Source of the DNA: Desulfocapsa sulfexigens DSM 10523 | GTDB lineage: Bacteria > Desulfobacterota > Desulfobulbia > Desulfobulbales > Desulfocapsaceae | Assembly: GCF_000341395.1 (NCBI RefSeq) | Contig: NC_020304.1 | Coordinates: 3,480,001 to 3,512,000, forward strand | Direction of reading: 5' to 3' | DNA length: 32,000 bases | In this document: in pieces, positions 9,672 to 32,000 of the stretch | How positions within the stretch are numbered: the stretch's first letter is position 1 | Layout of the letters: each line of letters opens with the position of its first letter | The notes under the pieces: generated by a model | What the model was told of the DNA's origin: nothing | Database searches by the model: none | Seen by the model: the letters and a program-made list of their open reading frames with translations, nothing else | Position numbers and translations under genes: made by a program

Positions 9672-11003
9672 ATGAAAACGACAACTAATAGTCCTCTCGC
9701 TGAACGCATGCGCCCCCAATCACTTACTGAGATAGTGGGCCAGGAAGACATTCTCGGAAAAGGAAAACTCCTGGAAAGCATGCTTGGATCTGGCACCCTG
9801 CCATCTCTTATTTTGTGGGGCCCTCCTGGAACCGGAAAAACTACCCTGGCCAGAATTCTGGCTCGTTCAACCAGTGCTCATTTTGTCTATTTCTCTGCCG
9901 TTCTTTCAGGCGTTAAGGAAGTTCGAAAAATCGTAGAACAGGCAGAAAAACAGAGAGAAATTGAAAATCGTGGAACAATTTTCTTTATTGATGAGATTCA
10001 TCGCTTTAATAAGGGGCAGCAGGACGCCTTTCTTCCCCATGTCGAAAACGGCCTATTCACTCTGATTGGCGCCACAACGGAAAACCCTTCCTTTCAAATC
10101 ATTGCTCCCCTCCTGTCCCGCTGCAAAGTACTGGTACTTTCGCCATTAAGCAAAGCGAACCTTGGGACTATCCTGCAAAGAGCTCTTGATAATCCAAAGC
10201 AGGGCCTCGGCAGGACTGATCTTTTCTTTGACAACAACAGCCTTGAACTCTTAACTACCCTTGCTGATGGCGACGCCAGAAAGGGGCTCAATACTCTGGA
10301 AATTGCCGCAACCATTGTTCTTCACCGGAAAAAAAATGATACTGCAGCCTCCAATGGTATCAGCCCTGATGATATTTTGGAAGCGGCACAGCAGACAGCC
10401 CTTCGCTACGACAGGGATGGCGACGAACATTTCAACCTTATTTCAGCCCTTCACAAAAGCCTTCGTGACTCTGACCCTGACGGCAGTCTCTACTGGCTCT
10501 ACCGAATGCTTGAATCTGGCGAAGATCCACTTTACATCTGCAGGCGCCTCATCCGGTTTGCTTCAGAGGACATTGGATTATCAGACCCACAGGCTCTTAT
10601 TCATACAATCTCCTGCAGAGATGCATATCACACGCTTGGACTTCCAGAAGGAAAACTTGCCATTGCTCAGGCTGTCGCCTACCTTGCTTCAGCTCCGAAG
10701 AGCAACAGTATTTACCGAGCGGAGTCCGATGTTTGCAAATGTATCCGTCAAACCGGCAGTCTTGGAGTACCCCTACATCTTCGCAATGCCCCCACTAGAC
10801 TAATGAAGGAACTCAACTATGGGAAAGAGTATAAATATGCTCATGATGCCGATAATGCACTTGTCGCTCAGGATCACCTTCCCGATGAAATAAAAGAAAA
10901 ACAATTCTACTTTCCAACCACTCGTGGATACGAGGCATTGATTAAGGATCGTCTGGAAAAATGGAAAATAATTCTAAAAAAGAGAAAACAAAATGCCGAA
11001 TAA
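9672..11003 (+). CDS. rarA: Replication-associated recombination protein A (AAA+ ATPase, MgsA/RarA)
   Basis: The translation shows [17 protein letters not shown], Walker [16 protein letters not shown], Walker [12 protein letters not shown], and the C-terminal MgsA region ([49 protein letters not shown]). Confidence 0.92.
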
Positions 11004-12606
11004 TCGACTATTTTCAAACCACTTTCTTTTACTTGCATGCTCTCTCAGTTTTCTTTTCACCACTATATGTATCCAGCCGGTGACCGCCGCCCCTGGACCT
11101 CCATCCCTTCTATTTTATTCTGGTAATATACAGAGTGAGACAGAACCCTGCGGTTGACAATCAAACCAATTGGGCGGTCTGCCCAAAAAGATTTACCAGA
11201 TCAACTCCCTGAGTAGCAGTGATAGATCCAACAGACTGCTTCTGGATTCCGGCAATCTCCTTTTTAAAAAGAATTCAATAGATAGAAGGCAGAACCAGGA
11301 AATACTGACCGCCGAGACTATTCTCGACATCTATACAGATATTGGCTATGACGCCGTAGCCATAGGCCCCTTGGATCTTGCAGCAGGAATAGATTTTGTT
11401 CAAAAGAGTTACAGCCATGGCTTCCCATGGATTTCTTCAAATATTACAGGCCCTGACGGAAAGCCCTTATTTACCCAATGGATAACCAGAACTCTTGGCG
11501 ATATAAAGGTGGTCATTACCGCAGTCACGGCCCATCCTCAGAAAGAATATAAAAACATCAATATTCAGCCATGGCAGGAATCACTAACGAAAACTCTCGT
11601 TACAATAAAAGAAAAAAAGGAAAATGCTTTTATTATTCTCCTTTCCTCCCTGAACAATTCTGAAAACGAGCAAATAGCTAAACGTTTTCCAGATATTAAT
11701 CTCCTTATTGGAGCAGACCCACACAGGGGGAACATCTCACCACAGCTTATAGGAAATACCCTCCTTACCCAAACGGCAAAACAGGGAAAATATCAGGGCT
11801 TACTTGAAATCATATTTGGTAAACAGAGGATATGGGGACATGATACCACCAGGCAACTTGCCGACCTCCAGAACAAACTGGGATCGGTTAACTGGCAGTT
11901 ACGACGCCTTAAAAAACAATCTAAAAAGAATGGAAATGAAAACAAATACACAGATACTATCCTTCGCCTGGAAAAGGAGAAGGAAGAATTAAACAGAGAG
12001 ATAGACACTTCAAAAAAACTCCTGACCCAGGAGAAAAAAACAGGAGTGAAAAATGATCAATACAATTATCGCTTTATTGGTCTTAAAAAGAACATGCCAA
12101 ACGATCAGCCAACTGCAGAAAAACTCATTTTGCTTAACCGCGAAATCAGAGAATTAAACAAGAAAAACAAACAGCTTGAGAATACTTCGGGAAACCTGTC
12201 CACACTTACTCAAAACATGGTGGGACATTCCGTCTGCGAAACATGCCATGAAACTCAGGCTGAGTTCTGGAAAGCCACCAGACACGCCTCTGCTTACTCC
12301 ACATTGAATAAAAAGGATAAATCGCTCAATTTGGACTGTTTACCCTGTCATTTGACCATAAACCCCAGGAAATTGGATTCCCAGATCAGCCCTGATCCTG
12401 GTTATCTCTCCTATCCGTCAGCATTACGTTCGGTAGGTTGTGAGTCCTGTCACGGCCCTGGCAGGGAACACTCCATTGCTCCTGAAACCTTTACATTATC
12501 CAGAAATCCCGAAAAGGCCCTCTGTCTCGCCTGCCATACTCCAGAGCATGACGACACTTTCAACTATGCTCCAAAGCTAAGCAGTATAGCCTGTCCTTCC
12601 GAATAA
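10993..12606 (+). CDS. Candidate selenoprotein (U55 encoded by TGA 11155-11157): signal peptide, C-G-U motif, metallophosphoesterase/5'-nucleotidase-like domain, coiled coil and C-terminal tetraheme cytochrome c (c554-like)
   Basis: ATG 10993 is in frame with track ORF 11170..12606, and the only interruption is one TGA. The 5' piece encodes [32 protein letters not shown]|AP (signal peptide), then LLFYSGNIQSETEPCG-U-QSNQLGGL. A SECIS-like hairpin lies at 11170-11186. Four CxxCH motifs (CETCH, CLPCH, CESCH, CLACH) lie at 12235-12537. Confidence 0.7.
11170..11186 (+). promoter_or_regulatory. SECIS-like hairpin (stem TTGGGC/GCCCAA, loop GGTCT) starting 12 nt after TGA 11155-11157
   Basis: Read directly: ttgggc (11170-75), ggtct (11176-80), gcccaa (11181-86). 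The loop sequence and the 12-nt spacing are identical to the hairpin after the fdhA UGA in this window, and the GGUCU loop matches my recollection of the E. coli fdhF SECIS apex. Confidence 0.65.
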
Positions 12607-12680
12607 AAAGCACATCCTCTTCCATACCTTTTTCCTCTCTCCTTATCAAACTCGGGGAAACACGATTCACCATGACCCAC

Positions 12681-12717
12681 AAAAAAAAAGGTGTTTCGAG
12701 GAAATCCTCGAAACACC
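12681..12717 (-). terminator. Rho-independent terminator of ppaC (12-bp perfect stem, 4-nt loop, 9-U tract on the minus strand); may also stop the convergent cytochrome transcript
   Basis: The stem GGTGTTTCGAGG (12690-12701), loop AAAT and stem CCTCGAAACACC (12706-12717) are preceded on the plus strand by A9 (12681-12689), which is U9 after the hairpin on the minus strand. It lies 49 nt downstream of the ppaC stop. Confidence 0.8.
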
Positions 12718-12765
12718 CTTAACACTTCCAGCTATATAACTGTCAGTATACTTTCTACTCTATCA

Positions 12766-13695
12766 TCAACAACCGAATGCTTTCTGAAGATCAGGAATTA
12801 CCTGCTTTTTACGGCTCATCATTCCGTCAACCCACATGGAAGTTCCTTCCATTTTGGATCCAAAAGCTTTCTCAATAAGAGCTTCATCATCAGAGACAAC
12901 AACCAGCTGAGTTCCTTCTTTTACAACATCAGTGAGCATAAGAAGAACTGTGTGACGTCCGTCTGCTTTTACTGCCTGAGCAGCAGCAAGAAGATCATCA
13001 CGAATAGCAGCAACCTGATCAAGGGTGGCAAGTTCGAGCTGTCCAACACCTACTTTGTTACCTTTCATGTCAAAATCTTTGTAATCACGGAAAAGGAGAT
13101 CCTTTGCAGGAACACCATCAACGGAAGATTTCGCTTTCAGCATATCCATAAAGAGTGCTTCAGTATCTTCAACACCAGCAATAACCTTCAGTTCTGCAAC
13201 AGCAGCTTTGTCATCATCGGTGCAGGTGGGGGATTTGAAATTAACAGTGTCAGAAAGAATCGCTGAAAGCATTCCACCAGCAACATCCTTAGGTATAGCA
13301 ACACCGGCGTCTTTAAACATCTTATTCAGTACGGTTCCGGTACAGCCAACAGGTTCAACACGGACAAGAATAGGCTGGTTGGTGGTTACATCACCAACTT
13401 TATGGTGATCAACGATGGTAACAACCTCAGCTTCGGTTATTCCTGCAGGAGCCTGTCCGATATCACTGAAATCTACAAGAGCGATGGTCTTGCCGGCAAC
13501 ATCCATCATTTCTTCTGGAGCGGTAAGGCCAAATTTTTCGAGTACAACAGTTGACTCAGGATTCAGATTCGCGAGAGAAGACTGCATGCATGCCTTGGCA
13601 TCCTGTCCCTGTGCATTCAAAAGAGCAGCAAGACCGATTGCTGCGGTAACTGAATCGGTATCAGGGTTAGAGTGACCTGTTACAAAAATTGTCAT
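12766..13695 (-). CDS. ppaC: Manganese-dependent inorganic pyrophosphatase, family II (DHH/DHHA2)
   Basis: The translation shows MTIFVTGHSNPDTDSVTAAIG (DHH motifs I/II), IVDHHKVGD (DHH) and the DHHA2 region (KDFDMKGNKVGVGQLE). The length of 309 aa is typical. The start at 13695 follows GGAGG (tacggaggtaacacaATG). Confidence 0.92.
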   Translation of the reverse strand: MTIFVTGHSNPDTDSVTAAIGLAALLNAQGQDAKACMQSSLANLNPESTVVLEKFGLTAPEEMMDVAGKTIALVDFSDIGQAPAGITEAEVVTIVDHHKVGDVTTNQPILVRVEPVGCTGTVLNKMFKDAGVAIPKDVAGGMLSAILSDTVNFKSPTCTDDDKAAVAELKVIAGVEDTEALFMDMLKAKSSVDGVPAKDLLFRDYKDFDMKGNKVGVGQLELATLDQVAAIRDDLLAAAQAVKADGRHTVLLMLTDVVKEGTQLVVVSDDEALIEKAFGSKMEGTSMWVDGMMSRKKQVIPDLQKAFGC

Positions 13696-13911
13696 TGTGT
13701 TACCTCCGTACATTTTATTTTTTAAAACCACCCAATTTCGGGGGTTCTTTAGCTTCTATTAAATTGTTGGCAACAATAGTGCTTTAGCTGATTTGAGTCA
13801 AGTGGAAAACTAAATTCTCACTGAAAAATAATGGAACCTAAACAGGTTTCTTTGATGGTGACATTAAGAAGAAGCTGCGGTATATTAAGAATAAAAAAAC
13901 AACCCAACCTT

Positions 13912-20318: not shown

Positions 20319-23300
20319 TCAAGCTTCTACTTTTTCATCGGTTATTTTATTTCCAAAGGCTTCTATTTGAGAAATCAACTGCTCATTAGTGAAGCCACCC
20401 ATGGAAATAGCAAAAGTTGGGCAATGTGAAGCACAAATTCCACAAGCCTTACAGGAAGCTGAAATGGTTCTTGCTTTACGCTTTTTCCCGACTTTTTCCA
20501 TTATAATTGCGCCATAGGGGCAGAGACTGCTACAAAGGCCACAACCGATACAGTTATCCTGTTCAACACTGGAAACAATCGGATCAACGGTGACAAACCC
20601 CTTAACAAGGGGCATAGCTGCCTTTGCTGCAGCAGCCTGCGCCTGGACAATTGTTTCCTCAACAGGTTTCGGAGCATGGGCGAGTCCGCATATATAGATA
20701 CCGTCAACTGCGGCCTCTACGGGGCGAAGCTTCACATGGGCCTCAAGGAAAAATCCATTGGCATTGACCGGGAGCTTGAGCATCTTGGAAAGCTCATCAG
20801 TTCCATCCGGTACAATTCCTACGGACAAAGTTACCAAATCCGGGTTCATACTTACTTCTTCCTGCATGATAGAATCAAAGAAGTCAACCTGTACTTTGGT
20901 ACCTTTTGAGCTCACAACAGGCCTTCGGTCAGTCTCATAGGGAATAAAAACAACACCCTTCTTTCTCGCCTCAAGGTAAGCATCTTCTGCAAAACCATAG
21001 GTCCGGATATCACGATAAAGAACAATAATCTGGGAGTCAGGATTAATTTCCTTAATCTTCAGAATATTTTTCATCGCATGATTACAGCACACCTTGGAAC
21101 AATAGTTAAGATCCTCACCCCGGGACCCGGCACACTGGATCATCACAATAGAGTTAGGCGCGCGATTCTTAGTTCGTCCGGCAAGCTTCGCTTCAAGCTC
21201 CTGCTGTGTAACAACCTTTTTTGATTTGCCAAGCTCATATAAATCAGGACGGTGCTCGTGGCCACCGGTTGCCACCACTATAACACCGTGGTCATAAACG
21301 GTTTCTTTCTTGTTTTTACCTTTTCCGCTTTCGATCACAGAATTAAAGTTACCGATAAATCCAGATGTCTGGGCGAGGGATCCATCGGTAATAACGGTAA
21401 TCTTTGCTGATTTCTGAACCTTTGCGGTAAGTGTTTTCAAAAAAGTTCCAACCGTATCTCCTGCGAGAGTATTTTTCAGATTCTTTAAATTACCACCAAT
21501 GGAAGGTGATTTCTCAACAAGAATCGACTCAAAGCCCTGATCGGCAAGAGACAATGCAGCAGTCATACCAGCTATTCCACCACCAATGACAAGGGCTTTA
21601 GGGGTAACTGGAACTGTCTGTTCTGGAAGTGGTTGAATATGTGCAGCCTTTGAAACAGCCATACGAACCAGGTCCTTGGACTTTTGTGTCGCAGCTTCAG
21701 GCTCATTGGCGTGTACCCAGGAACATTGATCCCTAATATTCACCATCTCAAAGAGGTTTCTATTCAATCCTGCATCCTTTAACGTCTCCTGAAAAAGTGG
21801 TTCATGTGTTCTTGGAGAACAGGCTGCAATGACAACCCTGTTTAATTTCTGATCTTTGATTGTTTTCTTGATCTGTTCCTGAGCATCCTGAGAGCAGGAG
21901 TAGAGGTTTTCTGTGTAGTAGGCGACATTATCCATTGTCCCGGCATTATCAGCGACATCCGGACAATCGACTACGGAGCTGATATTGATACCACAGTGAC
22001 AAACAAAGACGCCAATCCGTACTTCATCCTCATCTGTTACAGAGAGTTCGCTGGGATATTCCTTGATAATTGTTCCCTTACCTCTCTGTTTTTTCAGGAT
22101 ACTTGCAGCAAGCGCTGCAGCACCGGATGACTGGGTTGCTGACTCTGGAATATCCTTGGGCCCCTGAAATGCACCGGCAACTACAATACCATCCTGAGAA
22201 GTCTGCAGGGGGGTAAAGGAGTTTGTTTTACAAAAATCATATTTATTGAGTTCTATTTTGGTTATATCTGAGATCTTCTGGGCGTCCTTGGGTGACTCAA
22301 GACCGACAGAGAGAACAACCATATCATGGGCATCAAATTTGTGTTGACCATCCAGAGTAGAGTAGGTAAGTCTCAGATGATTCTCCCACGGAGTAACATC
22401 GGCAACTTTTGCACGGACAAACTTAATTCCAATGGCCTCAGCCCGCTCACGAGCTGCATCAAAATCTTTTCCCTGGGTACGGATATCCATGTAGTAGATG
22501 GTAATATCCACCTCGGGATCATGTTCTTTTGTTACAAGGGCTTCCTTAATTGCATACATGCAACAGACAGAAGAGCAGTAGCCATTGTCGCAGCCAAGAT
22601 CCCTTGATCCGACACACTGAATGAATGCCATGGATTTAGGATGACGACCATCGGAGAAACATTTAATCTCACCAAGGAACGGCCCTGAAGCAGTGGTCAT
22701 CCGCTCATACTCATAAGCGGTGACAACGTCTGGATGTTTTCCGTAACTGAATTTTTCAAGAGTTTCATCAGCAATCTTACCAAAACCAGGTGATAGAATG
22801 ACAGCTCCAATCTTGAGGTCCCGTGACTCTGGTTTCTGGCTGAAATTAATTGCATGACTCTGACAGACGGGAACACAGATCTGACAGGTATCATATTGAA
22901 TATGCATGCAGGATGCAGGATCAATATAATAGGTTGCGGGGACAGCCTGTGCATAATCGATATGAATTGGCCTGGTAATGGACAATCCTTCATTATATGC
23001 ATCTGCATGATGCTTTGGACAATACTGGGTGCATAAACCACAGGCAGTACAGGCATCAGCATCAATATAGCGCGGCCGTATGTTCAGCTTTGCTGTAAAA
23101 TTCCCTGGTTTTCCCTCCAATGCAAGAAAGTCAGCATTGGTGATCATTTCAATGTTTGGAGACCGACCGGCCTCTACCAGCTTTGGCGCCAGGATTCAGA
23201 GTGAACAATCATTGGTCGGAAAGGTCTTGTCAAGTTGGGCCATCACACCACCAACAGCTGGTGCTTTTTCGACCAGATAGACATAATAACCAAGGTCGGT

Positions 23301-23484: not shown

Positions 23485-26400
23485 TCAGGCAACTTCAAGT
23501 TTTGTGATCTTGATAGCACAAACCTTGGCCTCGGGAATTTTACATTGTGGATCGAGTGCGTCATTAGTCAACAGATTGGCCGAGGCCTCCTTATAATGAA
23601 AAGGAATAAAAACCAACCCCTTATTAACTCGCTCTGTAATCCTTACAGCAATTTCAATTTCTCCACGTCGTGATGCAGCACGAACCATTTCATTATCAGT
23701 GAGATTCAGGGTAGCAGCATCTAAGGGATTCATTTCGATATAGGCAGATGGAGCAGAACTTTCCAGAACATCTGAACGTCTGGTCATCGTTCCCGTGTGG
23801 TACTGGTACAGAATTCTACCGGTTGTCAGGACAAGCGGATACTCTTCATCAGGATTTTCTGCAGGTCCATTCCAGGTAATGGCGGACAACCACGCCTTAC
23901 CAATCGGAAACCCAGTTTTGTGAAGAATTGGAGTTCCAGGGTGATCAGCTTCCGGACATGGCCAGGCAAGTGACTCTTTTTCAAGTCTTTCATAACTCAT
24001 TCCCGCCATGGCTACCCAGCACTTTGTTATTTCATCAAAGACTTCATTGGCAAAAGGTGGAACGGTATGAAATACAGGGTCACTGCTACCCTGATATCTT
24101 CCATTCTGATTCCCTAGTATCCTGTTACTTACCATATTAATTATTGAAAGATCGTCCCTGGCATCTCCAGGAGGAGGTACGGCGCGCCGAACACGCTGAA
24201 CCTTTCTTTCAGTATTTGCAAACGTTCCATCTTTCTCAGCGAAGGAGGCAGCTGGTAGGACAACGTCTGCAATTTCAGCAGTTTCAGTGAGGAAAATATC
24301 CTGAACAACCAGGCATTCGAGTTTCTCAAAGGCCTTTTTCGCATGACTACTATTGGGATCGCTGAGAACAGGATTTTCACCCATAATCCACAATCCGGCA
24401 ACTTTCCCCTGAAGCATTGCATCACCCATTTCTGTCGCCATAAGACCTGGCTTATTCGTAATTGGGCTTTGCCATATTTCTGAAAACTTTGTACAGGCAG
24501 CTTCGTCATCACAACGTTGATAACCAGGGAAAAACGTTGGAACACAACCCATATCACTGGCCCCCTGAACATTATTCTGGCCACGAAGTGGATTAAGTCC
24601 TGCACCTTCTTTGCCAAGATTTCCTGTTATCACTGCAAGGTTCGCGAGTGAACATACATTATCAGTACCTGAGGTGTGCTGGGTAATACCCATGGTGTAG
24701 TAAATGCCGGCCTTATCAGCCTTCGCAAATGTATGTGCTACTTCCTCGATCAAGGTCACCGGTACATTGGTAATAGCTGCAGCCCATTCAGGGGTACAAT
24801 CAGCAATGGATTTTTTAAAAGCATCAAAATTCTCTGCACGCTCTTCAATGTATTTTTTATCCTCAAGACCGTCACGAAGAATGACATGACACAAAGCATT
24901 AATCAACGCACCATCGGTTCCAGGTTTCTGCTGTACCCAGTGATCTGCTGAGTCACACAATTTAATACGGCGGGGATCCGCAACAATGAGTTTAGAACCG
25001 TTCTTTGCAGCCTCAAGCATGCGTAAGCCGATAATAGGATGTGTCTCTGTTGTGTTGGATCCAATAACCAGCATCACATCACTATCGAGAATACCGTTAA
25101 TGGTGTTAGTCATTGCGCCTGAACCAAGTACTGTGACCAGACCGGTCACCGTTGGGCTGTGTCAGTATCTGGCACAATGGTCAACGTTATTTGTCCCTAT
25201 TCCAGCTCGGAAAAACTTCTGAAAGGCGTAGTTTTCTTCAGTGGTACATCGGGCTGAAGAGAGTCCGGCAAGAGCATCAGGCCCTTTTTCACCGAGAATA
25301 CGGGAAAAGGCTTGGCCCATAAAATCCAGGGCCTCATCCCACTTCACCGGTTCGAGTGGCATCCCCTTCTGTCTGCGAATAAGAGGTGTCTTTAATCGAT
25401 CTGGATGTTGGATAAAATTATGGCCAAATCGTCCTTTAACACAGAGATCACCAAAATTAGGTCCAATCTCAGGATCAGCAGTCACCTCCATGACGGTGTG
25501 ACCTTTCACCTTGAGGATCATTTGACATCCGGTTCCACAATAGGGACAGGTAGTTCTGACCTCTCGAACATCTTCCGCCTGAATAGGCACAATACGATTC
25601 TTTTTATTCAGGGCCCCGGTGGAACAATTCTCAACACATTTACCACAGGAGACGCAATTTTCCTTAAAATCGATAACAAGGCCTACTGGTCTGCCTTTTT
25701 CATCGACAGATTCAGCACGTACTTCAAGTGCGTCATATTCACACGATCGTTCACAACGACCACAGAAAATGCACTTATTTGGGTCGACAGTGATTGCGCG
25801 ATGACTGGTATCAACGGGATAAACAGGTACTGTACCCATTCCGGTTTTATTGATATTGACATTCAGTTCGATATCGAGGCGTTTCAGATCACAACGTTCA
25901 AAGGCGGTGCAGCCACACTTAAGACAACGATCAGCTTCACGTCTTGCCATTTTTTCGGTGAATCCAAGTTTGACTTCATCGTAATCCTGGGTGGAAACTT
26001 CAGGCGGGCGTTCGGGCATTTTCTCACGAAGATTGATTGCAATTTCATCAAAATTCTTGAGGGAGACATCATCAAAGGATTTTCCCCGGGTAAAATTGAA
26101 CCGGTTATCTGCTGGATCCTTTTCACAATTCATCACATAGGCATTGATATTATTGGCAGCCCTTCTTGCAGAAACAACGGCCTGAATAACAGATTTAGAA
26201 CCATTTGCAGCATCACCGCCTGCAAAAACTCCATCAACACTGGTCTCTGAACTTCTGGGATTAGAAACAAACATTCCCGCGGGAGTGATTTTGAGCTGTT
26301 CTTCAAGTTCCCCACCGGAAATAATGCCATTTACTGCCATTTGACCAAGTGAAGAGACAACGGTGTCAACGCCTAAGGAATTGGTTGAGCCAGGTATGGG

Positions 26401-27657
26401 CAGGATATCCCGTTTGCCCTTTTTGTCTGGTTCACCAAGTTTCATCCTGATAAGATCAAGTTTCAGCCGATTGTTTTCATCTGGAACAGCACAAAGCCCA
26501 GAAGGTGAAGCCATAAGAAGAAACTGGACGCCTTCGTTCTCTGCTTCCTTCACATTACGCTGGTTGGCTGGCATCTCAAGGCGAGCCCTAGGGTATACTA
26601 TTGTTACCTGTTCAACACCCTCACGAAGCAGCGACCTAGCTACTTCCATGGCGATGTTATTGCCTCCGATTACTGCGGCAGTGCGACCAAGATCGAGTTT
26701 TCTGCCTTCATTGATCATGCGGAGAAAACTGGTGGCTGTGTAGACATTCTCCTTGTCGGTACAGGGTACGTCAAAGGGAACATCAATGGTTGCACCGATC
26801 CCAATAAAAGTGGCATCAAACCCCATATCTTTGAGGTCCTGCAGGGTGAAATCTTTCCCCCATTTCTGCGACAGCCGAATATTGATTCCCATGCGCAGAA
26901 TAGCGTTGACTTCATAATCAACAATCTCTTTGGGAATCTTGTAATCAGGAAAGCCATAACGAAGTGCGCCGCCAAGTTTAGGGGCAGCTTCAAAGATGGT
27001 AACCTCATGACCTTTTCGGGTCAGGAACCATGCCGCTGTGAGACCAGCTGGGCCTCCACCGATAACTGCGATACGCTTACCGGTTGGTTTATCTTTTGGA
27101 ATTTTCAGATCAATCTCATGACTCATGCACCAGTCGGCAACAAAACGTTTCAAATGATTGATGGATACTGGTTCGTCAATGAGAAGCCGGCGACAGCGGG
27201 TTTCGCAAAAACGGGGACAGACACGGCCAACGGAAAATGGAACAGGATTGCGCTCCATGACAACACGCAAGGCCTCCTCGTATTCTCCTTTTGAAACATG
27301 AGCAATATACGCCTGAACATTGATCTGACCGGGACAAGTGAGATTACATGGAGCCTTGCAATCACCGAAATGCGTCTCGGAGATGATGGCAAGTCGATCC
27401 TGTCTGTGGCTAAAAACCTCCTCAGATTCAGTTTGTATATTCATTCCGTCACGAGCAAGAGTAACACAGGAACGCATTAAATCTTCCTGTCCTTCCACTT
27501 CCACCACGCAGATCTCACATGGGTTAGTAGAAGGTTTTCCTTTCACATGACAGAGAGTTGGGATTCTGATATCAGATCTTTTAGCAACTTCAAGGATGGT
27601 AAGGCCTTCCTCTGCTACTATCTCATTGCCGTTTATAGTCAGTGTAACAGTGCTCAT
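23485..27657 (-). CDS. fdhA: Selenocysteine-containing formate dehydrogenase alpha subunit fused to N-terminal 2Fe-2S, GltD-like NAD(P)H/FAD and 4Fe-4S ferredoxin modules (1390 aa; U832 encoded by TGA at 25162-25164)
   Basis: Track ORFs 25162..27657 and 23485..25149 share a frame. Read-through gives [31 protein letters not shown], the FdhA Sec motif. The N-terminus has a NuoG-type 2Fe-2S domain (CHVKG..CEICVVEV..C). It is followed by a glutamate-synthase-small-subunit-like region (GRVCPRFCETRC, IAVIGGGPAGLTAAWFL, AVIGGNNIAMEVA, GVFAGGDA) and by CIFCGRCERSC, CVSCGKCVENC and TCPYCGTGC. The remainder is a molybdopterin oxidoreductase body and C-terminal barrel. Confidence 0.92.
25133..25149 (-). 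promoter_or_regulatory. SECIS hairpin for fdhA (stem GUGACC/GGUCAC, loop GGUCU), 12 nt after the UGA
   Basis: The minus strand reads GTGACC (25149-44), GGTCT (25143-39) and GGTCAC (25138-33). Flanking CCAA...UUGG could add a lower stem. The element closely resembles my recollection of the E. coli fdhF SECIS apex. Confidence 0.75.
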
Positions 27658-27666
27658 GAATTCCTA

Positions 27667-29022
27667 TTAGTTAGAAGGTTTCCATTCTTTCAGGAACACT
27701 GGAAGATGTCCGGCTTCACGAGGTCCAATAATGATATTCCAATCTGGAAGTTCTTCTTCAAGCTCACCTTTAAGTGACGCAAGATAGCCGGGAATGATAA
27801 TATCACGATGTTTGACCTTATCCTCAATGCCACCTTTTTTAACAAACTGAGCAATGAGGTCAGCACCAAATTTTCCAGCTGCCCATGCCGTAAGAACCGA
27901 GAGTCCTTCAGTATCCTTGATAAGCAGCCAGGTTGGAACCTTGGAACCTTCAATCTCACCAGAAACAATAAAGTAGGTAAGCGAAAAGTTACAGGTGATA
28001 ACAACCGGGGAGTTCTCATCGGGTCCAGTAAGTGGATAAATATCCTCTGTAACAACCATGGGACGCTGAGGGTCGGTAAAAATATTCATCCGCTCAAGGA
28101 AAAGCGGAAAGATCAGGTCGCCCTGAAGATCGCCAAGTACTATGATACCTGCATATTTGGCAATGAGCACAGAGGCAACCATCGCTTCAAGCATTGGATC
28201 ATCGGTAATCTCACATGGGAAGGTAATAGTAGGAAACCCAAGAGGTTTAAACTTGGCTTTTACAGCAGAGCGCCTTGCAACCACATTATCCTCAAATGCT
28301 GCACGAAGAGTACGAGCACCGGTATCAATGACCATATCTTTAAGGCCGGCTGCACTGAGCTTTTCAGCAATTTCAACACAGTTATCAAGATTACTTGCCT
28401 TGACACCTACTGGGGCCTTAAAACTGCTGCCAAGCTTTGCCATATCGTCTGCATTATCAAGAGTTGCACCATAAAGCAAAGGCACTCTATCACCGCAGAT
28501 CTTAGCGGCTGCTTCCATATTTGCAGCAGAATCACTCATAAGGATGATGGCAGCACGAGCAGAACCTTCAAGTACCCTCTTGGTGAGAGCAACAAAGGAG
28601 GCTTCATCGTTTTTGGAATCTTTAACAGCAATGAGATCCGCACGCATGATAACTCCAACACGCTCGTATTCGAACTTATTAAAACGCTCAATACGGCCAT
28701 CGACATCAGCATCGCTCATTTCAGTGGTAACGAGAACTGCGATACCTGTCTGATTCTCAAAACGCTTATCATGACGATACATACAGGTCTCGCCACCGGA
28801 GACAAAACTATTATCCTTGGCACCAAGTTTAATGGTGCGTATCGGAGGAGCAGAAGCCTCGCTAATGGTGGCCTTGGCCTCATCGGAAACATAAGGACAT
28901 TCATCAATTTCAACCTGGCCAGCCGCTACTTTCATAGCAAAGGCAAGGCAGGTAGGGATGCTACATTCGCCACAATTTTTCTTGGGCAGCATCTTAAGAA
29001 TTTGAATACCGGTTAAGGCCAT
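27667..29022 (-). CDS. acsC: Corrinoid iron-sulfur protein large subunit (CFeSP gamma; AcsC/CdhE)
   Basis: The N-terminal 4Fe-4S motif is LPKKNCGECSIPTCLAFAMKVA...ECPYV. The 451-aa length and operon context fit. The GGAGG SD lies 7 nt upstream of the ATG. Confidence 0.92.
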   Translation of the reverse strand: MALTGIQILKMLPKKNCGECSIPTCLAFAMKVAAGQVEIDECPYVSDEAKATISEASAPPIRTIKLGAKDNSFVSGGETCMYRHDKRFENQTGIAVLVTTEMSDADVDGRIERFNKFEYERVGVIMRADLIAVKDSKNDEASFVALTKRVLEGSARAAIILMSDSAANMEAAAKICGDRVPLLYGATLDNADDMAKLGSSFKAPVGVKASNLDNCVEIAEKLSAAGLKDMVIDTGARTLRAAFEDNVVARRSAVKAKFKPLGFPTITFPCEITDDPMLEAMVASVLIAKYAGIIVLGDLQGDLIFPLFLERMNIFTDPQRPMVVTEDIYPLTGPDENSPVVITCNFSLTYFIVSGEIEGSKVPTWLLIKDTEGLSVLTAWAAGKFGADLIAQFVKKGGIEDKVKHRDIIIPGYLASLKGELEEELPDWNIIIGPREAGHLPVFLKEWKPSN

Positions 29023-29067
29023 GGTGATTCCTCCAGTTATCTATACAATTGGAATTTTGTATGTATT

Positions 29068-29087
29068 GTAATATTTATTACGTAATA
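29068..29087. repeat. Interlocked palindromes built from the hexamer GTAATA/TATTAC (GTAATA-tt-TATTAC-GTAATA), including the perfect 12-mer TATTACGTAATA, in the acsB-acsC intergenic spacer
   Basis: Read directly at 29068-29087. The 93-nt spacer is very AT-rich. Confidence 0.5.
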
Positions 29088-29115
29088 TTGAATGTTTCTT
29101 GTAAATCGATCAGAT

Positions 29116-31320
29116 CTAAACAGCCGTTTCCATTTCGAGTGCTGGATGGCCTTTTTCCTTGAGGAATTCGTAGATCTCCTCCTCAGTGGTTCCCTGTTCC
29201 TCTGTTGCGATCATATCAAACAGTTCTGGCATACCGATATCAGCACAGACTTCTTTTAATTTTTCAGCAATTTCTTCTTTGAGCATTTTCGGCAACCAGA
29301 CAACTCGTTTAAGCCCACCCTCTGCTTTGAAGAGTTTCTTGGAAGTCATGTAATGCTTACTGACACCCATAAATCCAGGAGTCTGCATACCACCACCGGC
29401 CATGCCGGCAAGAGAGGTGAACTTCATACCAGAGGGAGTCATACCAAGGTAATCACGGTTAACAACCATGATTCCGTTACATGTTGGCAGCATGGCGGCT
29501 ATTGCTTCAAAACAGCCACAGGCTGTCATCGGATTATTCATAAGCGAATAGCAACTTACTTCGGGAACAGCCCCACGAGATGCCTGATTTACAAATTCAT
29601 TAATTCCCGTGTAGTAGCCATTAGCTTCATCGGTACATTCCCCCTTCTCAATGGGCTGATTGGGACCGGTGGGATTAATATTAAAGGATGCCTTACCGTC
29701 GAGCCAGTTGTAAGCACCACACATTCCTATTCGTTCTGGGGTAATTACACATACATGACTTGGAGCAAAGGACTGGCACAGTGTGCATGAGTAGAAAACA
29801 TCCTCGGTCTCATCGGTCATGGCACCAAGACGGAGATCACGTTCGGTATATACAGAGGTGGCAAGATCTGAAACCATCTTTACTCCCTCTTCAGTGGTGT
29901 AGAGTTTCACCTGGATCTTATCAACAATGGCACCAAACTCCTGATGCAGTTTACCATGGAGTACTTTTCCAAGGTGCTTGAAGGAAAAGCCTTTTTCAAC
30001 AGCTGCAGTACCAATCCTGAGCCACATGATGTTTCGCTGGCCCATATGCATAATACCCTGGATGTAGTTCATCAGATGATGAAACTGACGTTCAAGGATA
30101 GGTTCAAAATCAGACTGCATTTCACGGCCTGCGACCTCTACAAGAATACCAAGTGGGACATTTTGACCACGTTCCAGATCGGAAATGTCCAATCCTTCAA
30201 GTGTCACTAATCCATCTTCGATCTCATCCATTTCTTTAGAGATAAGAACTTCAACACCTGGAGTTCGACCACCACCACACTCCATAAAGAGATCGTCCTT
30301 TCGAACACGCTCACCCTCAAAAGCGGGGCCAAAGGACATCGGGATATCGATTTTAGTTACGTTGACCTTCAGTCCACGAACCTCAATTGCTTTTTGAACA
30401 ATTTCTTCATGGGGGACGTTCGACACAACATGCTCGTAGGTACAGACACCAGTGGGCAGAATCTGAGGAATATCATAATCAGAAATGGTTGGAAAACCCC
30501 AGTTAATAGCACCAGCAGCATTTGCATACCACTCATCACTGACTTCACCAAAGGCCATGACAAAGGCAAAGGTTCGGTCTTTGTTATATTTCAGGTTCCC
30601 GGCATAGTCGCCTGGTTTGACCCCACCAAAGGCAAGGGCAACACGACAGGCAAAACCTATGGCAAAAACGGCGGTGGTATATTCACGACCAAATGGAACA
30701 AGACGGGTTCCCCAGCCAACCTGCTGTTTTTGTTTAAGCAGTTGATCGGGAAGACTTATCCCCTCGGTCTGGTCATGCATAAAGATGTACAGATTCTTCT
30801 CCTGAAGTTCTATCGCAATCTTTGCAGCCATTTCAGGATCTTTAGGAGTTCCAAGAATAGCAGCAAAACCAGGGGCTGAGCCATCGACAAATTCAACACC
30901 ACGTTTACGAAAAATTACGTCATCTGCGGCACCAAGCCAGAAGTTATCTGCGGTGGGATCTTCGGTTGCGGTATAGAGGCCAGGTTCATTGAGATACCTG
31001 ATAGCTTCGTACATCTCTTCTGCAAAGAATGTTGCCATACCGGCATCAAGTGCCGGAGCAAGATAGGGAAGCCAGATATCACCTGTTACAACAGGAGGCA
31101 TAAGCTTTCGACACTCCAGAAATATATCTTTCATGTCGCCAAGCTTCTCAACCTTGGCTCCAAGCATACTGTAAATAATTGGCAGAAAATAGGCGGTATT
31201 CGGAAATGACACTTCTTTGTCTTCACCATACTTCTTAACCGCATCTTCATAGCTGCTCTCGGCCATATCTATGATTTTTTGTGCACCGCGGATGGCAGCT
31301 GAACAAATTATTTTGGACAT
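29116..31320 (-). CDS. acsB: Acetyl-CoA synthase catalytic subunit of CODH/ACS (A-cluster subunit)
   Basis: The 734-aa protein has the A-cluster ligand motifs CTLCQSFAPSHVCVITPERIGMCGA and MTACGCFE. The N-terminus MSKIICSAAIRGAQKII is typical of bacterial AcsB. An AGGAG SD is present. Confidence 0.95.
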   Translation of the reverse strand: MSKIICSAAIRGAQKIIDMAESSYEDAVKKYGEDKEVSFPNTAYFLPIIYSMLGAKVEKLGDMKDIFLECRKLMPPVVTGDIWLPYLAPALDAGMATFFAEEMYEAIRYLNEPGLYTATEDPTADNFWLGAADDVIFRKRGVEFVDGSAPGFAAILGTPKDPEMAAKIAIELQEKNLYIFMHDQTEGISLPDQLLKQKQQVGWGTRLVPFGREYTTAVFAIGFACRVALAFGGVKPGDYAGNLKYNKDRTFAFVMAFGEVSDEWYANAAGAINWGFPTISDYDIPQILPTGVCTYEHVVSNVPHEEIVQKAIEVRGLKVNVTKIDIPMSFGPAFEGERVRKDDLFMECGGGRTPGVEVLISKEMDEIEDGLVTLEGLDISDLERGQNVPLGILVEVAGREMQSDFEPILERQFHHLMNYIQGIMHMGQRNIMWLRIGTAAVEKGFSFKHLGKVLHGKLHQEFGAIVDKIQVKLYTTEEGVKMVSDLATSVYTERDLRLGAMTDETEDVFYSCTLCQSFAPSHVCVITPERIGMCGAYNWLDGKASFNINPTGPNQPIEKGECTDEANGYYTGINEFVNQASRGAVPEVSCYSLMNNPMTACGCFEAIAAMLPTCNGIMVVNRDYLGMTPSGMKFTSLAGMAGGGMQTPGFMGVSKHYMTSKKLFKAEGGLKRVVWLPKMLKEEIAEKLKEVCADIGMPELFDMIATEEQGTTEEEIYEFLKEKGHPALEMETAV

Positions 31321-31332
31321 ATCTTAAACTCC

Positions 31333-31360
31333 TGTAATAGCTGTAATAGCAGTAATAAGC
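31333..31360. repeat. Three tandem 9-10 nt copies (TGTAATAGC, TGTAATAGC, AGTAATAAGC) abutting the acsB Shine-Dalgarno sequence
   Basis: Read directly. On the mRNA strand this is GCUUAUUACU-GCUAUUACA-GCUAUUACA-GGAGUUUAAGAU-AUG. Confidence 0.6.
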
Positions 31361-31392
31361 TTTGACTTCTACGTTTCAGTTCAAAGTTCCAA

Positions 31393-32000
31393 TCAGTCCA
31401 TAAGACCGGCAACCATTGCGTTAGTGAGTGCTATGGCTTTGGGATGACGCATGATCATAACTTCTCCACCTGCCATAAGCATGCAGCTGGCTGTAAGTGC
31501 TTCCATCATTATTCCTCGAGTCTCCTGATCACCAATCATATCATCGCTAGGAAGTTTCGTTTCCTTTGCCTTCCAGACTTCACAGCCAAGGTTACAGATG
31601 ATGGGTACCTGAAGCTTTGCATCCTGCTGGGTAAGAGCAGCAATACGAATACGCTCCATTACAGAGTAGGTGTACTCTATACCATAGCCAAGCGCTCCAA
31701 TGGAAGGATCCATCAGGACAGTATCAAGAGAAACACCAAGATTTTCAAGAAGAATGTTTAACTGTTTAGCTAGGTTAACATCAATTGGGGAGGCAGCTAC
31801 AATCGGATGCTGGAATGCCATGGCAGTTGCTCCGATAGTTCTGTAGTTGGAATCCTCAAGGGGCGCAAGACATACTTTTTTATCTCCTATGACGGAGGTA
31901 ATATCTCGCAGAGTTTCGGTATCTTTATCGGAATTACCACATCCCCAGACGATTACTGGGACATCAACTGCAGCAATTACAGCTGCTGCAGTTTTAGCAG
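31393..32000 (-). CDS. acsD: Corrinoid iron-sulfur protein small subunit (CFeSP delta; AcsD/CdhD), 3' part (5' end outside the window)
   Basis: The frame is open to the window edge (…AKTAAAVIAAVDVPVIVWGCGNSDKDTETL…). DPSIGALGYGIEYTYSVMERIRIAAL and the C-terminal MIMRHP closely follow my recollection of Moorella AcsD ([26 protein letters not shown]…LLMRHP). Confidence 0.9.
   Translation of the reverse strand, partial: AKTAAAVIAAVDVPVIVWGCGNSDKDTETLRDITSVIGDKKVCLAPLEDSNYRTIGATAMAFQHPIVAASPIDVNLAKQLNILLENLGVSLDTVLMDPSIGALGYGIEYTYSVMERIRIAALTQQDAKLQVPIICNLGCEVWKAKETKLPSDDMIGDQETRGIMMEALTASCMLMAGGEVMIMRHPKAIALTNAMVAGLMD

Follow-up and report, generated by a model that had tools for sequence, protein, structure and literature searches.

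The 32,000-nucleotide (nt) stretch of DNA analysed here, hereafter the window, comes from Desulfocapsa sulfexigens DSM 10523 (complete genome record CP003985; contig NC_020304.1, positions 3,480,001 to 3,512,000 of the forward strand), and all positions given below are counted from its first letter. Overlapping the end of rarA, it carries a gene at 10993-12606 that is interrupted by an in-frame TGA and that very probably encodes a selenocysteine (Sec, U)-containing member of NCBIfam family NF041198, exported and fused to a four-haem cytochrome. The features of this gene, among them a hairpin read as a selenocysteine insertion sequence (SECIS), are collected in Table 1, together with its upstream neighbour and two further TGA-split genes of the window.

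Table 1. Coordinates of the UshA-like gene, its parts and other genes of the window (bp, base pairs)
Feature	Coordinates	Strand	Details
Full gene, predicted UshA-like selenoprotein	10993..12606	+	537 codons plus stop; U is codon 55; one TGA only
Predicted Sec-type (general secretion) signal peptide, residues 1-32	10993..11088	+	predicted cleavage between VTA and AP
UshA / 5'-nucleotidase-fold domain, ~residues 36-283	11098..11841	+	AlphaFold2 model of homologue P0095, Foldseek, profile alignment; degenerate metal-binding motifs
C53-G54-U55 motif (TGC GGT TGA)	11149..11157	+	predicted Sec codon 11155-11157; Cys forms PCGC
SECIS hairpin UUGGGC-GGUCU-GCCCAA	11170..11186	+	5' arm 11170-11175, loop 11176-11180, 3' arm 11181-11186; codes L-G-G-L-P-K
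Long helical (coiled-coil-like) linker, ~residues 284-405	11842..12207	+	homologue model; K, E, L-rich
Cytochrome c554-like tetrahaem domain	12208..12603	+	PF13435; CxxCH at 12235-12249, 12337-12351, 12439-12453, 12523-12537
rarA (mgsA), replication-associated recombination protein A	9672..11003	+	upstream; 11-nt overlap of its 3' end with the UshA-like gene
hdrA-like gene	20319 to ~23380	-	ORF 20319-23147 extends upstream via TGA 23196-23198 in ...TNDCSL-U-ILAPK...
fdhA (formate dehydrogenase alpha subunit)	23485-27657	-	ORFs 25162-27657 and 23485-25149 joined by TGA 25162-25164 in ...VDHCARY-U-HSPTV...

In the list of open reading frames (ORFs) of the window, the gene begins at TTG 11170 and yields a product of 478 amino acids (aa). 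ATG 10993 and TTG 11170 share one frame, the sole stop between them is the TGA at codon 55, and the frame opened by the ATG closes at TAA 12604-12606. An earlier, sequence-only reading of this DNA had described the two starts as lying in one frame and split by a single TGA, which is what the frame itself says; the 167 nt that it counted between the end of rarA and the TTG measure 166 nt, a trivial slip. Its description of the gene as unannotated stands only in part. Exact look-up matched the 478-aa ORF to two records: AGF79676.1, titled "hypothetical protein UWK_03147", and WP_015405360.1, titled "UshA-like (seleno)protein". The RefSeq protein therefore already bears the family name, whereas the gene model behind it is truncated and the deposited WP_015405360.1 has neither a signal peptide nor a Sec residue. 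The TTG "start" is an artefact of gene callers halting at the UGA; the gene model UWK_03147 / WP_015405360.1 should run from ATG 10993, with the UGA read as Sec.

Orthologous loci were compared across 80 distinct examples from species-representative genomes, all of them Desulfobulbales (Desulfocapsa, Desulfobulbus, Desulfurivibrio, Desulfopila, Desulfoprunum, Desulforhopalus and others). The codon corresponding to U55 is TGA in 78 of these 80 loci and TGC in the other two. Every one of the 80 retains the upstream frame, which specifies a hydrophobic N-terminus followed by ...LLFYSxNxxGExEPCG, and coding sequence is conserved on both sides of the TGA or TGC, with the ...GETEPCG motif kept across the stop. 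Loss of the 10993-11157 frame from orthologous loci had been named beforehand as a finding that would count against read-through; the frame is instead conserved, across TGA in 78 loci and across TGC in two. A scan of metagenomes that used the Cys forms as seeds yielded five more Cys forms and many more TGA forms (dozens of contigs), bringing the Cys forms to seven in total (two from genomes, five from metagenomes), all reading PCGC; the Cys homologues carry ETEPCGCQSNQLGGL.

A search of a collection of 5.8 billion proteins returned 1214 matches, several of which carry the NCBI name "UshA-like (seleno)protein". Nearly all of the close matches are 470-480 aa long and start with L/MGGL; they are gene calls that restart right after the same UGA. 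The few full-length matches (P0095, P0098, P0100, P0102, P0119 and P0120) have a signal peptide followed by ...FYSNDVQGETEPCGCQSNQLGGL..., with a Cys aligned to U55. Where the full-length homologues begin had likewise been set as a test, and they start with the signal peptide, not downstream of the TGA position. The EPCGC...LGGL motif with Cys at the position of U55, which the sequence-only reading had named, is also real: the Cys forms have ...GETEPCGCQSNQLGGL....

The hairpin that follows the TGA begins exactly 12 nt past it and is the minimum free energy (MFE) structure at -9.1 kcal/mol. Folding recovered the 6-bp stem, the GGUCU loop and the spacing that had been picked out from the sequence, and their likeness to fdhA also holds. 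The bacterial SECIS (bSECIS) consensus quoted in PMC13188914 comprises a loop of 3-9 nt, a stem of 4-16 bp, a G in the first two loop positions, a UGA-to-loop distance of 16-37 nt and an MFE of at most -7.5 kcal/mol; with its 5-nt GGUCU loop, 6-bp stem, 18 nt from UGA to loop and folding energy, the window element lies within all of these ranges. The fdhA element of the same window has the identical GGUCU loop, a 6-bp stem and the same 12-nt spacing, and differs in stem sequence. Formate dehydrogenase SECIS elements (E. coli fdhF and the fdhA of the window) likewise sit within coding sequence right after the UGA and have a small apical loop starting with GGU; compared with them, the element at 11170-11186 shows no clear extension of its stem down to the UGA, and it is matched by no Rfam model.

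Synonymous sites were informative about selection on this hairpin. In the Sec-type genome loci, the first Gly codon is GGC in 78 of 78 (39% of Gly codons elsewhere in these genes) and the following Leu codon is CTG in 78 of 78 (33% of Leu codons elsewhere). The Ser/Pro codon has the form xCC in 77 of 78, and the first Leu codon is only TTG or CTG (ATG, Met, in five loci), TTG making up 8% of Leu codons elsewhere. Control codons for invariant Gly and Leu residues (in DSGNLLF and VGCExCH) have an entropy H of 1.5-2.1 bits. A 5-bp core (GGGC/G(U/C)CC plus a U-A or U-G pair) is preserved in every one of 104 distinct Sec forms, drawn from genomes and metagenomes, and in none of the seven Cys forms, which use GGA, GGG or GGC, then CTA, CTT or TTG, and TCT, TCG or TCA at the corresponding codons. 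The Cys forms therefore differ among themselves at precisely those sites that are invariant among the far more divergent Sec forms. These data show that the hairpin is under RNA-level selection independent of the amino acids it encodes, and they make the family a clean, well-populated case in which SECIS selection can be read from synonymous sites by comparing Sec and Cys forms.

Family membership is clear. With U replaced by C, the read-through protein scores 482.5 bits against NF041198 (UshA_like_PCGU; product name "UshA-like (seleno)protein"), for which the curated equivalog cut-off is 275 bits, and its residues 22-526 correspond to model positions 8-519 of 519. The P-C-G-U (or P-C-G-C) motif that characterizes the family, close to the start of the mature protein, is present as EPCG-TGA at 11146-11157, aligned to the PCGC of the Cys forms. 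In addition to this motif, the window protein has the signal peptide, UshA-like domain and C-terminal cytochrome of the family, and no difference at the protein level was found. It does not belong to NF049981 (UshA-like selenoprotein family 2): both it and a set of marine relatives described below score 32-52 bits against a cut-off of 140.

The sequence-only reading had left open whether this family was already described as a selenoprotein. It was: besides the name of NF041198, "COG0737, UshA-like, CxU" appears as a predicted selenoprotein family with 76 Sec sequences in the Global Ocean Sampling selenoproteome (Zhang & Gladyshev 2008, PMC2398784), "COG0737, UshA" as a selenoprotein family in 12 organisms (Peng et al. 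2016), and the family is also found in prokaryotic selenoprotein reviews of 2022 and 2026 (PMC9312934 and PMC13188914, the latter citing NF041198). It goes unmentioned in the Sargasso Sea (2005) and Olavius (2007) selenoproteome papers, and a literature search on the locus tag and accessions of the D. sulfexigens protein found nothing. The selenoprotein family has thus been catalogued since 2008, and the present finding is a rediscovery whose sole new point is the truncated gene model. That truncation is common to most database members, which lose the signal peptide and the C-G-U motif with it, so that predictions of localisation, structure and function made from them are wrong.

The segment restored by read-through begins with a predicted signal peptide: its n-region is basic, its core hydrophobic, and V-T-A precedes the predicted cleavage site. 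Translation from the TTG would give a product with a hydrophilic start (MGGLPKKIYQINSLSSSDRS...). Both halves of the earlier proposal, that the 5' piece supplies a signal peptide and that the TTG version is without one, agree with the sequence and with the equivalent N-terminus predicted in orthologous loci. A lipobox, LLAC at residues 13-16, was considered and rejected; the hydrophobic stretch before its Cys is too short, and that Cys is not conserved in orthologues.

At the other end of the protein, the four CxxCH motifs (CETCH, CLPCH, CESCH and CLACH) are invariant in the homologue alignments. The domain matches Pfam PF13435 (Cytochrome_C554) with 51.8 bits against a gathering threshold of 20.8, and a profile search of the PDB retrieved cytochrome c554 (1bvb) with E = 2e-14; the c-type haem motifs that had been noted at the C-terminus are borne out by both Pfam and sequence. 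CxxCH c-type haem motifs require periplasmic maturation, and a signal peptide is required because the C-terminal domain carries four such covalent c-type haem sites. The protein has the four CxxCH motifs and the PF13435 match in common with cytochrome c554 of Nitrosomonas (1bvb / 1ft5); in cytochrome c554 the tetrahaem module is a free electron shuttle, whereas here it forms the C-terminal domain of a larger, enzyme-like protein.

One difference between Sec and Cys forms lies in the extreme C-terminus of this domain. In alignment A1, the Sec-type (TGA-truncated) members end in a conserved tail ...(I/V)xCP(A/S)(G/E), with P0109 as an exception; in the window protein the tail reads IACPSE (12583-12603). 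The six full-length Cys forms end in ...LVH and have no tail Cys. The tail Cys of the Sec-type members may serve as a resolving or partner cysteine, or else act as a fifth haem-domain ligand.

The structure of the remainder of the protein was approached through an AlphaFold2 model of P0095, a full-length Cys homologue with 35% identity to the window protein, built from a 41-sequence alignment (mean predicted local distance difference test score, pLDDT, 87.5; predicted template modelling score, pTM, 0.82). In a Foldseek search its best PDB matches were E. coli UshA (1hp1 and 1ush, E ~1e-17 over ~285 columns), followed by CD73 and SoxB. The linker of this model contains helices at 278-297, 313-341 and 368-391. 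The profile of the N-terminal domain also aligns to the Thermus 5'-nucleotidase 2z1a (E = 2e-11), with the dimetal motifs replaced; the aligned pairs are NDTH/ND-V-Q, DAGD/DaGN, GNHEF/iGsldl, SHLG/lsnls and GGHSH/iqsdaa.

Motif by motif, the N-D-T-H of true 5'-nucleotidases is N-D-V-Q in the family and G-N-I-Q in the window protein; D-A-G-D has become D-x-G-N in the family and D-S-G-N in the window protein; and G-N-H-E corresponds to G-x-x-D and G-P-L-D, respectively. S-H-L-G is replaced by S-N/S-L in the family and by S-S-L in the window protein, and G-G-H-S-H, which is not conserved in the family, aligns with G-A-D-P-H. Pfam gave no match to the 5'-nucleotidase C-terminal substrate-binding domain in the window protein, where the helical linker and the cytochrome are found instead. 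On the homologue model and these alignments, the protein has an UshA fold whose metal site has been lost. The C-G-U motif falls in the modelled loop that follows the former D-x-H strand and precedes the GGL helix, beside the old active site. The family is also a clear example of an enzyme scaffold in which the metal site was lost and a selenol centre apparently acquired.

The comparison with characterized members of the superfamily points in the same direction. E. coli UshA and other 5'-nucleotidases (1ush, 1hp1, 2z1a and CD73) have the same N-terminal fold and similar sequence, including the GGL and LSAN segments, and UshA and the window protein are both exported or predicted to be periplasmic. 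Unlike UshA, the family of the window protein has no dimetal ligands and no nucleotide-binding C-terminal domain, and has a Cys-Gly-Sec motif and a tetrahaem domain. The thiosulfohydrolase SoxB (TIGR04486; 2wdc) has the same superfamily fold and is also a periplasmic protein, one of sulfur metabolism; it keeps its dimanganese site, which the window family has lost. The window protein scores 33.2 bits against TIGR04486, for which the cut-off is 550, and UshA-type models remain far below their own cut-offs.

Several observations weigh against the reading of this gene as a selenoprotein gene with a redox function. Folded from the window sequence alone, the hairpin is marginal compared with shuffled sequences (z = -1.47; 15 of 200 shuffles fold as well or better), and for this reason we relied on comparative evidence. 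It also codes for L-G-G-L-(S/P)-K, a segment conserved even in true 5'-nucleotidases, so that nucleotide conservation as such is confounded and only synonymous sites separate RNA from protein constraint. The Fisher tests for the difference between Sec and Cys forms at the 5-bp core (p = 3e-11) and for the association of C-G versus U-A at the sixth, outer pair (p = 9e-5) count related sequences as independent, so that their significance is overstated, and most of the Cys forms may be one clade. Rfam, searched with the whole window at gathering thresholds, gave no match, and a permissive search of 11100-11260 gave only chance matches and no SECIS family; Rfam has no model for such an element, so this null result is uninformative. 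None of selA, selB, selC and selD lies within the window, nor does any tRNA gene, including one for tRNA-Sec. Confidence in the homologue model is lowest at the C-G-C loop (pLDDT 57-67, residues 31-50), so any placement of this loop relative to the old active site and the haems would be uncertain. As a clue to function, genomic context was rejected, since only housekeeping synteny (rarA and a DHH-family gene) is conserved. Finally, the literature found on the family consists of table entries only, with no report of Sec insertion, expression or activity for any member.

Alternative accounts of the TGA fit the comparative data poorly. That it is a true stop, with a 478-aa protein starting at TTG 11170 and a 54-codon small ORF or non-coding sequence at 10993-11157, might seem to follow from the deposited protein and from the database homologues, most of which are called as ~478-480 aa from L/MGGL. 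That shared start is the artefact described above, lying four codons past an in-frame TGA in all loci, with ...LLFYSxNxxGExEPCG conserved upstream of it; the Cys forms run continuously through the TGA position; NF041198 positions 8-519 are covered only with the upstream part included; and the 478-aa product would have no signal peptide yet four CxxCH motifs that need periplasmic maturation. We consider a true stop extremely improbable. The chance that the gene is a pseudogene, or that the TGA is a misread TGC or TGT, each one base away, is negligible: the frame is intact on both sides, the conserved hairpin goes with TGA and not with TGC or TGT, and an error would have to recur at one codon across independent genomes and dozens of metagenome contigs. 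The recurrence of TGA at this codon in 78 of 80 loci and in the metagenome forms in effect excludes a sequencing error, a pseudogene and a true downstream start alike.

Read-through of the UGA by something other than Sec-tRNA (for example a near-cognate Trp, Cys or Arg tRNA), with the hairpin as a generic read-through stimulator, would be compatible with the tolerance of Cys at U55 in some homologues, and the presence of selenium in the protein does rest on prediction. We nevertheless judge it highly improbable, because the GGUCU loop and 12-nt spacing are those of the window fdhA, whose TGA matches the Sec position of E. coli FdhH in alignment, the hairpin fits the bSECIS consensus, the organism is a documented Sec user (Peng et al. 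2016), and a UGA aligned to Cys in a CxC-type motif is a classic selenoprotein signature. A different question is whether the protein, however its UGA is decoded, is a functional UshA-type 5'-nucleotidase or phosphoesterase, or a SoxB-type thiosulfohydrolase, with an extra cytochrome domain. It does resemble UshA, CD73 and SoxB significantly in both fold and sequence; still, such an activity appears very unlikely given the replacement of D-x-H by N-x-Q in the window protein, of G-D by G-N, of G-N-H-E by G-P-L-D and of the motif IV His by Ser, the lack of conservation of G-H-x-H, the missing C-terminal substrate-binding domain and the SoxB and UshA-type scores far under their cut-offs.

In the selenoprotein reading, which we prefer, translation would start at ATG 10993, and the UGA would be decoded as selenocysteine by SelB and the Sec-tRNA, recruited by the hairpin 12 nt downstream. 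SelB-dependent insertion of Sec at codon 55 would be followed by export through the general secretion pathway and then by attachment of the haems. The tetrahaem domain might exchange electrons with a Cys53-Sec55 selenenylsulfide/selenol centre acting on a small substrate. We infer that the most likely reading of the protein is a periplasmic Cys-Sec oxidoreductase wired to haems, and not a nucleotidase. Given the order-wide spread of the family in sulfur-metabolising Desulfobulbales and its distant kinship with SoxB, an inorganic sulfur or selenium species is a plausible substrate. A more specific proposal is speculative, and we think it unlikely to be correct as it stands: a dead 5'-nucleotidase scaffold would have been remodelled around a Cys-Gly-Sec centre and, within Desulfobulbales, coupled to a tetrahaem cytochrome for one particular inorganic sulfur or selenium redox step. 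That step may, for example, belong to sulfur disproportionation, to the handling of polysulfide or thiosulfate, or to the detoxification of selenium. If it were true, the near-universal synteny in Desulfobulbales and the near-exclusive use of Sec over Cys would mark an important and unstudied enzyme.

Relatives that have no cytochrome domain were also found, one (L123) with 300 bits on NF041198 and a marine group with 213.7 bits (L133; below the cut-off of 275). Their existence indicates that the haem domain is an add-on to a conserved core made up of signal peptide, PCGU pseudo-phosphoesterase domain and helical region. The marine group comprises loci L133-L163, from marine metagenome contigs (for example L133 and L153), with proteins of ~392 aa that contain PCG-U-KKKPLGGLARKAT and score 35.5 bits on NF049981; at the old D-x-H position they keep NVHGE. 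These loci carry a variant of the SECIS with a 6-bp stem and a GGUCUU loop, in which the outer pair is C-G in eight and U-A in four, a purely synonymous covariation (Leu CUG/UUG with Arg CGG/CGA). The marine group probably corresponds to the "UshA-like" selenoproteins of the Global Ocean Sampling study and may need a family model of its own.

With respect to gene order, rarA lies upstream on the same strand in 64 of ~80 loci, and a DHH/DHHA2-family gene lies downstream on the opposite strand in 47 (loci L004-L083; in the window, this block spans 9672-13731). The 11-nt overlap with rarA suggests co-transcription with this housekeeping gene.

The two other split genes of the window are consistent with use of Sec by this organism, for which 14 selenoproteins have been predicted (Peng et al. 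2016). In fdhA, the TGA corresponds in alignment to Sec140 of E. coli FdhH, and the hairpin, GUGACC-GGUCU-GGUCAC, lies at 25133-25149, 12 nt past the TGA. In the hdrA-like gene, the TGA falls opposite the second Cys of DCSMC when aligned to methanogen HdrA structures, and a hairpin, GAGGCC-GGUC-GGUCUC, begins 21 nt past it. The large ORFs at 27667-31821 on the minus strand, adjoining fdhA, resemble, by eye, genes for acetyl-CoA synthase / CO dehydrogenase corrinoid proteins of the Wood-Ljungdahl pathway.

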